DNA from: an uncultured Gammaproteobacteria bacterium
GTDB lineage: Bacteria > Patescibacteriota > Patescibacteriia > UBA9934 > CAZDDW01
Direction of reading: 5' to 3'
NCBI GenBank assembly: GCA_965231015.1
Contig: OZ246408.1
Span: 545,237 to 609,236 of the forward strand
Length of the DNA stretch: 64,000 bases
Made by a program: the position numbers and the translations under genes. The notes under the pieces were generated by a model. It was given only the letters and a program-made list of their open reading frames with translations. It did not search any database and had not been told where the DNA came from. Positions 59,813 through 63,881 of the stretch are shown here, piece by piece; the stretch's first letter is position 1, and the number at the start of each line of letters is the position of its first letter.

Positions 59813-61225
59813 CTACACAATCACCTGATTCTCTTCAATCTTGGCCGCTGGCTTTTCTTCATCGTTGGTTTCAATTTCTTTCTCCACCTTTCCCTTAGCT
59901 AGAGCATATTGCTCGCGGACATGTTGGATAATTCTGTCTGTGAAAGACTGGTGTTTTGGTGGTGTCACCGTTAATACATCAGCCGAAAATGGATCCCAAC
60001 GCTTGCCATCAATAGTCATTTTCACATAAATTTCTCGCTCAGCCAGGTTGATCATATCACTAACTTCAAACACGGGCTTCATTTCTTGTTCCATAATCAT
60101 TGCGTCCTCTGCACCAATCTGAAAAGTGATAATGTTGGCTACGTTTCCAAAAAGAGTTGAACGTAACGATGGCAAAAGCTGTGACAAATTTTGGTTTGCG
60201 ACCGTGACACAAAAGCCAAACTTTCTTGATTCAGCTAATAAGTTCTCAAAGGTCTGGGTGGCAATATTTTGAAACTCATCCACATACAAATAAAACGGAG
60301 TTCTTTGTTCTGCCTTAAGAGCAATACGTTGCATGGCTGCCTGGTACATTTTTGTGAGCACCACAGCACCAAAAAAAGCTGATTTATCATCCCCCAGTCG
60401 CCCTTTTGACAAATTCACAAGAAGTATTTTTTGATTCTGCATGATATCGAAAAAGTCGATCTTGTTTGACTGTTGGCCGAAAATATCTCGCACCAAAGGA
60501 TCAGATAAAAGTTGACCAAGCTTGTTTAAAAGCGGAGAAACCGCCTCAGAATCATAACGCTGTGACCATTCGGGAAACTCAATCGCCCAAAAACGACGCA
60601 CCACCGGATCCTTGATGTATTCAATTACTTTACCCCGATACGGGCCACTTGATAGTAAGGACACCATTCCATTAAGTGTTCCTTTTGGGTAATCAATCAT
60701 GGCGAGCGTTGAAAAACGAAGCAAGTGTTCAATGCGCGGTGTCCAGTCACTCGCAAACTGTTTTTTAAAAATCTCAATCAAACCATCTGTCACCATGTGT
60801 TTATCGTCTTCTGGAACATTGGCGATCGGGTTAAAGGATATTGGCCAATCGCGGTCGGACGGATCGATCAGAACCACGTCTTTAAGTCGACTTTCAGGAA
60901 TAAAATCAAGCACGTCTTGAATCAAGTCTCCGTGTGGGTCAATGATGCCAAGTCCATGTTTGAAATGAATATCTGATCGAATAAAGTGCTCCAACAACTT
61001 GGTCTTCCCCACCCCTGACTTTCCAATCACATACATGTGCCGGCAACGATCTCTACGTTTGATACCGAAAATATAACGCTTGGAGGAGTATCCCGAGCTA
61101 AAATTTGTTCGTCCAAATAGGGAAATTTCCTCTGGCCGAATATCATCTTTCGTAGGCAAAGAATCCGGCGGTTCATGCCGACGAGCAACAAAAGTTTCTA
61201 TTTGTTCGTTTCCTCCATTAAACAT
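59813..61225 (-). CDS. TraD/VirD4/TrwB-like (DUF87-type) P-loop ATPase, paralogue 1
   Basis: Walker A VIGKSGVGKT, Walker B LYVDEFQN; shares ~40% identity blocks with the next gene (IDPHGD, LSKGR(L/I)G, DEFQN). Confidence 0.65.
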   Translation of the reverse strand: MFNGGNEQIETFVARRHEPPDSLPTKDDIRPEEISLFGRTNFSSGYSSKRYIFGIKRRDRCRHMYVIGKSGVGKTKLLEHFIRSDIHFKHGLGIIDPHGDLIQDVLDFIPESRLKDVVLIDPSDRDWPISFNPIANVPEDDKHMVTDGLIEIFKKQFASDWTPRIEHLLRFSTLAMIDYPKGTLNGMVSLLSSGPYRGKVIEYIKDPVVRRFWAIEFPEWSQRYDSEAVSPLLNKLGQLLSDPLVRDIFGQQSNKIDFFDIMQNQKILLVNLSKGRLGDDKSAFFGAVVLTKMYQAAMQRIALKAEQRTPFYLYVDEFQNIATQTFENLLAESRKFGFCVTVANQNLSQLLPSLRSTLFGNVANIITFQIGAEDAMIMEQEMKPVFEVSDMINLAEREIYVKMTIDGKRWDPFSADVLTVTPPKHQSFTDRIIQHVREQYALAKGKVEKEIETNDEEKPAAKIEENQVIV

Positions 61226-61228
61226 AAT

Positions 61229-63067
61229 TTACCACGGAAAAATATCTTCTTCGCCTTTTAATACTTTTGGTTTGTTTTTACTGTCGTCTTGTTGAAATCT
61301 GCTCGGCTTTTTCTTTTTACGCTTCCGTTTCTTCTTTGGTGGAGGAGTTCCTTCCGAAGGCAATGATACAGAATCACTGTCTTTTTTTGATTCCTGATTT
61401 GATTTTTTATCCTGTTTTGGCTGGTCGTCTTTTTTTGGTTGTTCTTTCGGTTTATCATGGCTCTTGTTTAGTGCATCTAACCCAACCTCGACTCCGGGCA
61501 ATTCTTTTTTAACAATCTCTCCTTCAACCATCTTGGGAGATTTCGTCTCTTTTTTAATTTTAGGTTCTTTATACGTTCCTTTTTTCTTTTCTTCCCGAAC
61601 AATTTCTATACAGTCCTCACAATAAATTGGACGATTGCGATCTAGCTCTACCGGGATCGACATATGTTTTCCACAACGAGTACAATCGTAATCAAATAAT
61701 GGCTTTTTACTTTTCTTTTTTCCCGGAGCGTCAGCAGGCATACCCGGCACCTCACCTTCCGGTTCCATTTTAGTCTCGCTCCACTTCATAATCTTGTTGT
61801 GTACCACGTTTTTTGGGTGCGTATAAAGCTCACGTGAACGTGCAATGATTTTTTCAGCGTTACCTGTTTCAAACGCTATTGGTGGCAAGGTGGTTGCAGA
61901 GAACGACTCTGAAGCCACCCCGTCGATCATTAATTTCAAATAAATGTTGTATTTTGGAAGATTTACCAAGTCTTCTTCTGTAAAACGCGGAGCAAATTCG
62001 GTTACCAGTTTCAAAGCGTCAGTGGCTCCAATTCGGAAAGATATAAGAGTTCCCACGTTTCCAAACACGGCCGCAACCACTGTTTCATCCAACTGTTCAA
62101 TATACTGATGAGCCATAATCAAATTCAGATGATACTTTCGAGCTTCAGACAAAATGTTAGCAAAAGATTCGGTGGCAAAATTTTGAAACTCGTCAATAAA
62201 AAGATAAAAATCACGTCGTTTAGGCTCCAACATGTCCACCCGCTCCATAGCCGAAAGTTGAAGTTTGGTGATGACTAATCCCCCAAGCAGGCGACTGGAA
62301 TCTTCTCCGATTCTTCCTTTAGAAAGGTTCATGATCAGGATTTTGCCCCCATCCATAATTTCGCGCGGGTTGATGGTCGATTTTACCTGCGCCACAATAT
62401 TTCGTACCAAGGAGGTCGACAAAAACTGCCCCACTTTGTTTTGAATCGGTGCGATTGCTTCTGACCGAAACTTATCTTGCCATTGTTCAAACTCTGTAAT
62501 CCAAAAACTTTTTACCACCGGATCCTGCAAATTACTAACCATACGACGACGAAAATCTCTGTCTACTAAAATTCGATTAATCCCAAGCAGAGTGTTACCG
62601 GGATTTTCAAGTAACGTCAGAATACAATTGTTCATGATGTGCTCCATTCGCGGACTCCACACGTCCGGCCAAATTTTCTTAAAAACACCCATCAAACCAC
62701 TTGCAATCAAGTGGCGGTGATCATCGTCCACAGCCTCTAAAACATTAAACCCAACCGGATTGTCTACGTCGGCCGGATTAAAATATACTACGTCATTGAT
62801 CCGATGATTTGGAATGTAGTTTAAAACAGTTTCTGCTGAATCCCCGTGCGGATCAACAATGGCGACCCCGTGATTCAAATATATATCGGAGAGGATCATG
62901 TTCTCAATCAGGGTGGTTTTACCAACACCGGTTTTACCAATGATGTAGGTGTGACGGCGCCGATCATCGGTCTTAATGCCAAATTTACGCATCGAATTGC
63001 GAAAATTAGTGCGCGCGAAGTAAATAACATCGTTTTCGTGATCGTGATCGTAAATTCCGAAAGACAT
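61229..63067 (-). CDS. TraD/VirD4/TrwB-like P-loop ATPase, paralogue 2, with C-terminal CxxC-x17-CxxC zinc ribbon and Lys-rich tail
   Basis: Walker A IIGKTGVGKT, Walker B LFIDEFQN, CTRCGKHMSIPVELDRNRPIYCEDC, KKKRKRKKKK tail. Confidence 0.65.
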   Translation of the reverse strand: MSFGIYDHDHENDVIYFARTNFRNSMRKFGIKTDDRRRHTYIIGKTGVGKTTLIENMILSDIYLNHGVAIVDPHGDSAETVLNYIPNHRINDVVYFNPADVDNPVGFNVLEAVDDDHRHLIASGLMGVFKKIWPDVWSPRMEHIMNNCILTLLENPGNTLLGINRILVDRDFRRRMVSNLQDPVVKSFWITEFEQWQDKFRSEAIAPIQNKVGQFLSTSLVRNIVAQVKSTINPREIMDGGKILIMNLSKGRIGEDSSRLLGGLVITKLQLSAMERVDMLEPKRRDFYLFIDEFQNFATESFANILSEARKYHLNLIMAHQYIEQLDETVVAAVFGNVGTLISFRIGATDALKLVTEFAPRFTEEDLVNLPKYNIYLKLMIDGVASESFSATTLPPIAFETGNAEKIIARSRELYTHPKNVVHNKIMKWSETKMEPEGEVPGMPADAPGKKKSKKPLFDYDCTRCGKHMSIPVELDRNRPIYCEDCIEIVREEKKKGTYKEPKIKKETKSPKMVEGEIVKKELPGVEVGLDALNKSHDKPKEQPKKDDQPKQDKKSNQESKKDSDSVSLPSEGTPPPKKKRKRKKKKPSRFQQDDSKNKPKVLKGEEDIFPW

Positions 63068-63068
63068 A

Positions 63069-63881
63069 CTAGTTTAATTTATCTTTTACGTCCTCTAGTT
63101 CCGTATCCGGGTCGATTAACAACTTTACCGCATCAGGGATATCTTCTCCGTTTGGTAGAGTTGGGGCGTTTGACTGGTCAGATTTTTTAGCCGGGTCCGG
63201 GTTCTCGTCCACCACCTTACTTTCTGTTGGAGGATTGATTCCTGAAATTTGCGGCGTATCAAAATCCATATTTATATCTGGCTCTGAAAATCCATCAACA
63301 GACGGCTCGGTAGGTAAATTTTGCTGTAGTCCCATCTCACTCTCAACGGAATCACCCTCAATTTCAAAAGTCAGCTCGTTACTCGTACTTGGGATTGCGG
63401 GTGCGCTGGCATTTTCGTCTTCTTCAGAAGCAAACTTAAGTTTAGAGGGCGGTTCAGCTCGTTTAGAAACAGTTTTACTAATAAGCGGTGCCTTGATTTC
63501 AATGGTTGGAAAGTGATAAAGCGTGGCCAATTCTTCAGTGTTAAGCACATAACGTGGCACACCCTTAGCTAAAGATCGGTTTTTATACGCTAAAATAAGC
63601 TTATTGACACGTGACCAGTAAAACCAGCGCTGCCAGAAATAGTCGTCTTTTGGTGTTACGGTTCCAGCCTTTCCGAAATAATTTAAGTCCAAATGGCTAT
63701 ACAGCTTGAAAACACCCTTAATCATGTCATTGCGAAAACCTTTTTTGAACACTTCCTTTTTTCCAATATAAATGTAGCGGCATTTGGTTTCAAAACCGAT
63801 CTTGGATATTTTTTGTACCACTTGCTTAGAAATTTCCCGTTCCTGTTCAGTAACCTTAAAAGCTTTCCACAAATCTTCCAT
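63069..63881 (-). CDS. hypothetical protein with acidic disordered C-terminal half
   Basis: 270-aa ORF 1 nt upstream of the ATPase pair (likely co-transcribed). Confidence 0.45.
   Translation of the reverse strand: MEDLWKAFKVTEQEREISKQVVQKISKIGFETKCRYIYIGKKEVFKKGFRNDMIKGVFKLYSHLDLNYFGKAGTVTPKDDYFWQRWFYWSRVNKLILAYKNRSLAKGVPRYVLNTEELATLYHFPTIEIKAPLISKTVSKRAEPPSKLKFASEEDENASAPAIPSTSNELTFEIEGDSVESEMGLQQNLPTEPSVDGFSEPDINMDFDTPQISGINPPTESKVVDENPDPAKKSDQSNAPTLPNGEDIPDAVKLLIDPDTELEDVKDKLN

Follow-up and report, generated by a model that had tools for sequence, protein, structure and literature searches.

A membrane-anchored DUF8128 protein and two TrwB/VirD4-like ATPases as a putative nucleic acid-handling module of Patescibacteria

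The right end of a 64,000-nt stretch of contig OZ246408.1 from an uncultured patescibacterium (the whole stretch is called the window below) carries three closely spaced minus-strand open reading frames, at 63069-63881, 61229-63067 and 59813-61225. They encode a membrane protein with the Pfam domain DUF8128 (PF26449) and two ATPases of the type IV coupling protein (T4CP) family, here termed ATPase A and ATPase B. With moderate confidence, we regard this operon as a domesticated, membrane-tethered motor of the T4CP (VirD4/TrwB) family that is divided over separate chains and probably handles nucleic acid.

An earlier note, made from the sequence alone, had described two adjacent minus-strand ATPase genes for proteins of 470 and 612 aa, separated by 3 nt, and a further gene at a distance of 1 nt. 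Both ATPase reading frames were located (59813-61225 and 61229-63067) and both gaps were measured on the window (3 nt between ATPases A and B, 1 nt between the DUF8128 gene and ATPase A). The note had placed the third gene downstream of the ATPases, but on the coding strand the DUF8128 gene lies 5' and is the first of the three:

63069..64000, minus strand: 3' part of the DUF8128 protein gene (last 309 codons and stop), first gene of the operon, frame open to base 64000
61229..63067, minus strand: ATPase A, 612 aa, a soluble VirD4/TrwB-like motor (residues ~30-430) with a zinc ribbon and a disordered, Lys-rich tail behind it
59813..61225, minus strand: ATPase B, 470 aa, a TrwB/VirD4-like soluble motor starting 3 nt past the ATPase A stop

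The DUF8128 protein and its partnership with ATPase A

A species-level scan (one genome each) with a DUF8128 alignment confirmed at least 590 relatives of the membrane protein among the 600 pattern matches listed. The 81 related loci referred to below belong to the Patescibacteria (candidate phyla radiation, CPR), and the best 80 loci of the scan span Uhr-, Falkow-, Buchanan-, Magasanik-, Kerfeld- and Komeilibacteria as well as other Patescibacteria. An ATPase of the 612-aa type was found directly 3' of the DUF8128 gene, on the same strand, in 73 of the 81 loci, and five of the eight exceptions end at a contig edge. The gap between the two genes had a median of 3 nt, with 53 of the 73 gaps being 20 nt or shorter or overlapping. 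The DUF8128 protein is a true conserved partner of the A-type ATPase. What the earlier note had called a co-transcribed unknown gene is the key partner. Conservation of the cassette is divided: the pair of DUF8128 and ATPase A recurs (73/81), but ATPase B was present in only five of the 81 loci. A full-text literature search for "DUF8128" returned no paper.

Within the window, the DUF8128 codons occupy 63072-63998 and match the profile built here with an E-value of 1.3e-93; the N-terminal 245 residues, with the single transmembrane (TM) helix, fall outside the window. The full-length gene was recovered from a 51.7-kb contig of the same organism (L001:8335-9999). It encodes 554 aa and carries a precomputed PF26449 match, as do 118 of 120 listed homologues of the protein. 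One TM helix is predicted at residues 20-46. In the AlphaFold2 (AF2) model of a homologue with 88% identity, the predicted local distance difference test score (pLDDT) exceeds 90 for the greater part of residues 60-420, apart from some dips to low confidence, and residues 420-527 are disordered. The general plan of the family is one N-terminal TM helix, a globular domain of ~360 residues and a disordered acidic tail. In the window protein, the C-terminal ~125 residues are acidic and predicted to be disordered. The "270-aa acidic hypothetical" described earlier is not a complete gene; the length of 270 aa is a window-edge artefact, because the reading frame continues open to base 64000.

The termini of both partners show recurrent motifs. 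DUF8128 proteins end in PPxNLP[IVF] after a disordered linker in ~65 of the 81 loci, the window protein being without this motif, and A-type ATPases often terminate in [IV][KR]F[DE], or in IFPW within the clade of the window. Judged by their sequence, these motifs look like docking peptides. In 34 of the 81 loci (L028-L080), the DUF8128 gene is preceded by a gene for a ~370-430-aa protein with Sigma70_r4 and HARE-HTH domains (e.g. L049:8787-9914). This gene is on the same strand, often 2-60 nt away, and absent in the lineage of the window; its product may be a DNA-binding partner or a regulator of the module.

Relation to coupling proteins and type IV secretion

ATPase A has the architecture of a coupling protein motor with additions at its C-terminus. 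The following features were located:

62915..62938, minus strand: Walker A motif of ATPase A, GKTGVGKT, residues 44-51, in 67/67 full-length orthologues
62351..62725, minus strand: all-alpha insertion, residues ~115-239, modelled by AF2 as helices only, between Walker A and Walker B
62186..62203, minus strand: Walker B motif, LFIDEF, residues 289-294, in 66/67 orthologues
61610..61684, minus strand: zinc ribbon CTRC-x17-CEDC, residues 462-486, found as a regular-expression match
61307..61336, minus strand: KKKRKRKKKK run, residues 578-587, within the Lys-rich disordered tail

Residues G44, K45, G47, G49 and K50 of Walker A are invariant in the A-type orthologue alignment (A3). The all-alpha insertion corresponds to the all-alpha domain of coupling proteins, and the Pfam TrwB_AAD_bind match spans residues 31-329. 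Three coupling protein domains of Pfam were found on ATPase A above their gathering thresholds (GA): TrwB_AAD_bind with 39.7 bits (GA 20.5), TraG-D_C with 28.0 (GA 22) and T4SS-DNA_transf with 28.7 (GA 20.1). The same three are above GA on ATPase B, with TrwB_AAD_bind at 35.6 bits (GA 20.5). A Foldseek search with the AF2 model of ATPase A ranked TrwB first (E 9e-9, TMt 0.61, 16% identity), followed by Cag-beta, HerA and the C-terminal domain of VirB4, and TrwB was also the only sequence match of the ATPases in the PDB. The earlier assignment to the coupling protein type of ATPase is borne out by these domains and by the structural ranking. Most of the shared motifs named there were also recovered, namely Walker A, Walker B as (F/Y)(I/V)DEFQN, LSKGR(I/L)G and F(R/Q)IGA(T/E)DA, but IDPHGD occurs only in the 470-aa protein, the 612-aa protein having VDPHGD.

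The zinc ribbon and the basic run reported for the 612-aa protein are both present, at residues 462-486 and 578-587. All four ribbon cysteines of ATPase A are invariant in alignment A3, and the motif occurs in 51 of the 67 orthologues, on many of which PF23477 is precomputed. Hidden Markov model (HMM) scores for the ribbon were below cut-off in both cases (Pfam zf_Tbcl_2, 24.9 bits with GA 27; TIGR04272, 25.5 bits with a cut-off of 36). The tail (residues 431-612) contains 47 K/R against 35 D/E and has pLDDT below 50 at residues 502-612; runs of at least six K/R were found in 18 of the 67 A-type orthologues. The ribbon type recurs in the window, as the earlier note had observed: a 191-aa protein (30655-31230, minus strand) contains two zf_Tbcl_2 ribbons (CxxC-x17-CxxC, E 3e-33), and a 579-aa protein discussed below ends in CxxC-x18-CxxC.

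Type IV coupling proteins such as TrwB of R388, VirD4, TraD and Cag-beta have in common with the window ATPases a RecA-type P-loop motor with an all-alpha insertion and the three Pfam domains TrwB_AAD_bind, TraG-D_C and T4SS-DNA_transf. The differences concern anchoring, tail and gene context. No TM helix or hydrophobic segment was predicted in ATPase A or B, whereas VirD4 of A. tumefaciens has two to three TM segments in its own chain by the same test. The anchor in the window operon is the separate DUF8128 protein with one TM helix and a large globular domain. In place of the acidic TraM-binding tail of coupling proteins, ATPase A has the C-terminal zinc ribbon and basic tail. Finally, genetic linkage to a relaxase and/or VirB genes is typical of coupling proteins, whereas the window cassette has neither within 10 kb on either side. 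The curated NCBIfam TraD/VirD4 models scored the ATPases at only 40-53 bits against cut-offs of 250-650, the best being SXT_TraD (53 bits, cut-off 366) and conju_CD1115 (48 bits, cut-off 250). Alignment of the ATPases to single VirD4, VirB4 and VirB11 sequences with hhalign did not discriminate among the three.

VirB4 likewise consists of an N-domain followed by a TrwB-like ATPase, although the window ATPase is nearer to TrwB than to the C-terminal domain of VirB4. The top 14 Foldseek matches of the DUF8128 model in the PDB were all TrwK/VirB4 of R388 (E 3e-5 to 4e-3, probability 0.99-1.0), with TM-scores of ~0.3 and 9% identity; one of the matched chains has 457 residues. The sequence-based searches gave nothing comparable: the DUF8128 profile had no match among PDB sequences at E-values up to 10, a Pfam scan of 37 DUF8128 members returned noise only, and hhalign gave a probability of 0.2% against VirB4 of A. 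tumefaciens and below 1% for a 52-sequence DUF8128 alignment against the VirB4 N-domains of nine MPF_T plasmids. The VirB4 model TIGR00929 scored 30 bits against a cut-off of 643. We treat a VirB4-like fold of the DUF8128 domain, which the predicted model suggests, as an unconfirmed lead.

These results bear on the possibility that the module is a trans-encoded coupling protein of a patescibacterial type IV secretion system (T4SS), which would recruit protein effectors instead of nucleic acid to a distant channel. Membership in the coupling protein family (Pfam and Foldseek) is consistent with such a role, as are the resemblance of the DUF8128 model to the VirB4 N-terminal domain, which docks on membrane parts of the T4SS, and the conserved C-terminal motifs PPxNLP and [IV][KR]F[DE], which suggest docking peptides. 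T4CP genes are also often distant from virB4, and the T4SS cluster of Southlakia has no recognisable coupling and relaxase proteins (Wang et al. 2023). According to the passages on T4CP and VirD4 in Quinonero-Coronel et al. 2025 (PMC12102498), 5,713 T4CP (VirD4-type) homologues occur in 2,918 of 3,035 Patescibacteria genomes, about two per genome and far from virB4, and exaptation "cannot be ruled out". Judging from these passages, the homologues are almost certainly the same proteins as the ATPases described here. The same passages, together with section 12 and the start of section 13, do not mention DUF8128, a split or fused architecture, lineages, or phage and mobile relatives. Their figures speak against a T4SS role: VirB4 is present in 2,417 of the 3,035 genomes, fewer than contain the homologues, only 148 of the 5,713 homologues are near virB4, and in Southlakia epibionticum the homologue is non-essential, whereas the T4SS genes are essential. 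Nucleic acid is moreover favoured over protein as the substrate by the ribbon and basic tail of ATPase A and by the HTH_17 domains found in its relatives (see below). We consider recruitment of effectors to a T4SS unlikely, but worth keeping in view.

Fused, split and truncated forms

The relation between the DUF8128 protein and the ATPases became clear from long relatives. ATPase B as query against 1.84 billion cluster representatives, searched exhaustively, gave 20,731 relatives at E ≤1e-3 and 5,257 at ≤1e-30, and near relatives include proteins of 700-1,130 aa with a C-terminal ATPase. The N-termini of all 14 long fused representatives tested were matched by the DUF8128 profile (E 1e-9 to 1e-89), most strongly in a "long" N-domain group (1e-57 to 1e-89), less so in a "short" one (1e-11 to 1e-34) and at 1e-9 in a non-CPR protein. 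PF26449 is precomputed on fused DUF8128-ATPase proteins as well. Loci L044 and L049 also encode single chains of ~850 aa with a TM helix, a DUF8128-like domain and an ATPase. The ancestral unit was therefore a single chain, of which the window operon is a split version. The only TM helix of the fused proteins is N-terminal to both the DUF8128 and the ATPase domains, and from this order the DUF8128 globular domain should be cytoplasmic.

ATPase B lacks an N-domain, a zinc ribbon and a tail. Its catalytic motifs were located at:

61001-61024, minus strand: Walker A of ATPase B, GKSGVGKT
60272-60289, minus strand: Walker B of ATPase B, LYVDEF

The two ATPases share 41% identity over 421 residues (E 2e-120). 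B-type orthologues were restricted to close Uhrbacteria relatives, in the five loci mentioned above, and scored 577-784 bits against ATPase B. In a neighbour-joining tree of 125 ATPase domains with 60 bootstraps, the B clade was monophyletic in 60/60 and nested inside the lineage of fused proteins with a short N-domain, while the split A-type ATPases formed a separate clade of 50 tips. The N-terminus of ATPase B also retains the linker motif RRHEPPxxLP, the counterpart of which in the split system, KRAEPP, closes the DUF8128 protein. The nesting and the retained linker identify ATPase B as belonging to a different, old paralogue lineage and as truncated at its N-terminus.

The earlier description of the ATPases as tandem paralogues holds with regard to paralogy, but not as a simple tandem duplication. 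A recent duplication of A into B was rejected, as the tree places B in a different paralogue lineage. That B is a decaying recent duplicate, leaving a single functional ATPase, might be suspected from its missing N-domain, ribbon and tail and its absence from 76 of the 81 loci. Walker A and B are, however, intact in all five B-type orthologues, whose scores remain high, the nesting of the B clade is incompatible with a copy of A, and the gene is a full-length reading frame tightly coupled to A by 3 nt. A decaying duplicate is therefore largely refuted and very improbable, and the pseudogene that the earlier note had allowed for among the two copies is rejected on the conservation of motifs and orthologues.

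Beyond ATPase B, the window encodes a 579-aa Cys-repeat protein (57696-59435, minus strand) with a C-terminal CxxC-x18-CxxC ribbon resembling that of ATPase A and no Pfam, PADLOC or PDB sequence match. Its homologues follow the B-type ATPase in four of the five B loci, with up to four tandem copies (L002), which suggests a link with ATPase B.

Anchored and anchor-less ATPases also occur together elsewhere. Loci outside the CPR pair a fused gene with an extra ATPase paralogue of 393-397 aa that has no N-domain, and the 1,227-aa protein P0272 from a high-GC non-CPR organism (L085:10001-13684) combines a DUF8128-like domain with two tandem ATPase domains. Its locus has a Replic_Relax gene immediately downstream and an integrase and an HTH_17 gene upstream. 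Pairing of an anchored with an anchor-less ATPase is a feature that recurs outside the lineage of the window, and it speaks for two ATPases acting jointly.

More than 100 non-CPR proteins contain PF26449 and PF10412 together. They are ~1,030-1,060 aa long, often have an HTH_17 (AlpA/excisionase-type) domain and are found on contigs of up to 7.9 Mb. Three sampled contexts contained integrases, transposases, a Cas4-like nuclease and a methyltransferase, and in two of the three a Replic_Relax gene is directly downstream of the fused ATPase. Just 5' of non-CPR fused genes, we observed a ~230-aa multi-pass membrane protein (L082:9331-10017, L084:9296-9997, L085:9290-9994), the copies of which match each other with E 1e-52 to 1e-80 and have no family assignment; it may be a membrane partner of these ATPases.

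Phages encode related proteins. In Foldseek, the DUF8128 model matched gp156 of phage G (E 1.4e-16) and proteins of phages Slash and JL (~3e-15), these Bacillus phage matches being stronger than any match in the PDB. A fused CPR protein aligned by tblastn to gp27.4 of SPO1 across 84% of the fused protein's length with ~21% identity, and profiles for the N-domain and the ATPase matched gp27.4 with E 1e-5 and 2e-41, respectively. ATPase A itself matches orf201 of 0305phi8-36. For the genes orf200-207 of 0305phi8-36 and gp27.3-27.9 of SPO1, Pathria et al. (2012; PMC3357382) proposed a "DNA translocation operon" that encodes a relaxase of the MobC type, a VirD4-like ATPase lacking a TM domain and proteins that bind membranes; under laboratory conditions this operon is dispensable. 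In SPO1, gp27.4 sits between the "partition protein" gp27.9 and the nickase gp27.3, and phage D6E shows the same pair of partition gene and ATPase. The likeness to the module described here lies in the order of a DUF8128-related globular N-domain and a VirD4-like ATPase. The phage ATPases are, however, single chains without predicted TM helix, whereas the N-domain of the window sits on a separate chain, and their neighbours are genes for a MobC-like relaxase or nickase and for an MreB- or partition-like protein, whereas CPR loci have no homologues of either. Phmmer searches with SPO1 gp27.3 and gp27.9, the D6E partition protein and the Replic_Relax proteins of L085 and L086 found no homologue in the window or the 81 loci.

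Chromosomal setting, proposed role and significance

The cassette is embedded in the core chromosome. SecD and secF lie directly 5' of it, and uppP, mnmA and lepA follow downstream, within the window. The window further contains genes for V/A-type ATPase subunits, dnaG, the NAD-ligase gene ligA and recJ. The GC content of the cassette equals that of its flanks, and the nearest homologues were from Candidatus Uhrbacteria or other Patescibacteria throughout, among the matches listed. Across the 81 loci, secD-secF is upstream in 56-59 and mnmA downstream in 34, and the order secDF-DUF8128-ATPase-(uppP/mnmA) is common to Uhr-, Falkow-, Buchanan-, Kerfeld- and Komeilibacteria as well as further lineages. 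A profile search detected no further member of the ATPase or DUF8128 families in the window. A promoter and terminator scan of 59300-64000 gave nothing above shuffled expectation. A tRNA-Ser(TGA) gene on the plus strand (59615-59687) is convergent with the cassette and marks its 3' boundary, 125 nt past the ATPase B stop.

The earlier note had seen no VirB4, relaxase or pilus-tip genes adjacent to the ATPases and had argued against a classical conjugation system. Both statements stand: no relaxase, VirB4 or pilus gene was found within 10 kb on either side or in the 81 loci, and the core-chromosome setting means that the cassette is therefore not a classical conjugation locus. An ordinary coupling protein of an integrated conjugative or mobilisable element, whether integrative element or plasmid, would account for the family resemblance to coupling proteins, and non-CPR relatives do reside in integrative elements, where integrases and a Replic_Relax gene accompany them. 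The gene order shared by many Patescibacteria lineages, the GC content, the lack of any integrase, transposase, relaxase or T4SS gene within 10 kb on either side and the lack of a DUF8128 match in PLSDB plasmids (tblastn) all speak against it. We reject an integrated conjugative element on the grounds that the housekeeping synteny is conserved; this explanation is largely refuted and has next to no chance of being correct.

We also weighed a role in defence against phages or plasmids, with a motor akin to mad8 from the MADS system or to defence ATPases of the HerA type. The PADLOC model of mad8 (PDLC04140) matched ATPase A (E 9e-19), ATPase B (8e-15) and the non-CPR protein P0417 (9e-17), weak HerA and DndH matches were obtained, and non-CPR loci have a methyltransferase, a Cas4-like nuclease and DUF4238 nearby. 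The mad8 scores, obtained across the ATPase core, are, however, moderate (53-66 bits); DUF8128 is not part of MADS and has no PADLOC match; and no other MADS component, methyltransferase or nuclease is present at the window locus or in the 81 CPR loci. Membership in MADS was rejected, given the absence of partner genes. A fixed place among housekeeping genes across classes is also atypical for defence islands. The chance that the module serves defence is slim.

The position next to secD-secF could instead point to a housekeeping motor outside horizontal transfer, such as an FtsK-like translocase for chromosome or division functions or a helper of Sec export. A membrane-anchored protein with an ATPase of the FtsK-HerA superfamily would suit this, and phage homologues adjoin "partition protein" genes. 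The Pfam model FtsK_SpoIIIE, however, reached only 16.1 bits on ATPase A (GA 24) and did not match ATPase B, the best structural match is TrwB and not FtsK, and another gene stands between secF and DUF8128 in 34 of the 81 loci. The synteny with secDF may be inherited gene order only, because the downstream genes uppP, mnmA and lepA are functionally unrelated. We regard a housekeeping motor as improbable, and all three roles (defence, integrated element, and FtsK-like or Sec-linked function) as less likely than the domesticated coupling protein motor.

For the domesticated motor, we propose the following course. Single-chain DUF8128-ATPases would originally have been encoded by Bacillus phages and integrative elements, beside relaxase-like or nickase genes in the manner of coupling ATPases. 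In Patescibacteria, the module would have lost its relaxase partner and become a fixed chromosomal gene set. In the window operon, the DUF8128 protein would supply the single N-terminal membrane helix and a cytoplasmic adaptor domain of ~360 residues. ATPase A would be the motor that is normally C-terminal to DUF8128 in one chain, here separate and with an acquired ribbon and Lys-rich tail. ATPase B, as a second, anchor-less motor from the other paralogue lineage, probably joins A in mixed or stacked rings. On the cytoplasmic side of the membrane, the motor would most likely bind nucleic acid and use NTP hydrolysis to move it or pass it on. Within this proposal, the homologies, the relation of split to fused forms, the synteny and the intact catalytic motifs are shown by the data, whereas ring assembly, cytoplasmic topology, a nucleic acid substrate and translocation are deduced from them.

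The ribbon in 51 of 67 orthologues, the basic tails, the HTH_17 domains of relatives and the relaxase-linked ancestry together point to nucleic acid, which is probably the substrate. Several observations weigh against this proposal. The locus has no linked relaxase gene, transfer origin or channel component, and for this reason a DNA substrate is deduced only from the ancestry and the ribbon and tail. The ribbon scores stay under the curated HMM cut-offs, and roughly one orthologue in four lacks the ribbon. Every NCBIfam TraD/VirD4 equivalog score is far under its cut-off. The non-essential homologue of Southlakia (from the passages of PMC12102498 cited above) and the laboratory dispensability of the phage operon (PMC3357382) mean that the module may be accessory. 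The conserved secDF neighbourhood, finally, could reflect a different, protein-related role.

Patescibacteria account for a large part of the diversity of bacteria and rely on host cells, and how they exchange macromolecules with these hosts is an open question. The present results give an anatomy to the orphan coupling protein homologues of these bacteria, with DUF8128 as an obligate membrane-anchoring partner or N-domain. They sort the ATPases into distinct paralogue lineages, with split, fused and truncated forms among them, and trace these ATPases to the "DNA translocation" ATPases of phages and mobile elements. This anatomy makes the question of function testable and gives a likely role to the Pfam domain DUF8128. 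If a VirB4-like fold of DUF8128 is true, it bears on the divergence of the VirB4 and VirD4 ATPases. The family is itself not an orphan one: T4CP homologues in Patescibacteria are already known (2025), and phage and mobile relatives have been discussed as coupling ATPases.

A wider reading, which we consider quite unlikely, is that the DUF8128-ATPases are a third branch of the VirB4/VirD4 radiation, with a VirD4-type motor and a VirB4-type N-domain, spread over phages, integrative elements and archaeal and Gram-positive plasmids, and that the patescibacterial paralogues form a conjugation-independent nucleic acid pump in the membrane. Two or three domesticated paralogues, here split and anchor-less, would then import or process host DNA or RNA for nucleotide salvage. 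Patescibacteria are mostly unable to make nucleotides. A gene for AMP phosphorylase stands directly after that of the ATPase in seven of the 81 loci (L049:13124-17683, L050, L054, L055, L062, L068 and L028), joined in three to four of the seven by genes for ribose-1,5-bisphosphate (R15P) isomerase and form-III RuBisCO; the three enzymes together constitute the nucleotide-salvage pathway of Patescibacteria. Further hints for such a pump are the zinc ribbon and basic tails, the occurrence of the ATPase family in more genomes than VirB4, as given in the passages of PMC12102498, and a 2026 preprint that reports a patescibacterium feeding on host RNA.

Elsewhere in the window, a high-GC island was observed at 12100-15100, with a GC content of 0.54-0.59 against ~0.43 in the remainder. 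It contains reading frames of 303 aa (12178-13089, minus strand) and 576 aa (13326-15056, plus strand) without Pfam match, and the island itself is without Rfam match. Situated between V/A-ATPase genes and a TatD-like gene, it may represent an insertion of foreign DNA.

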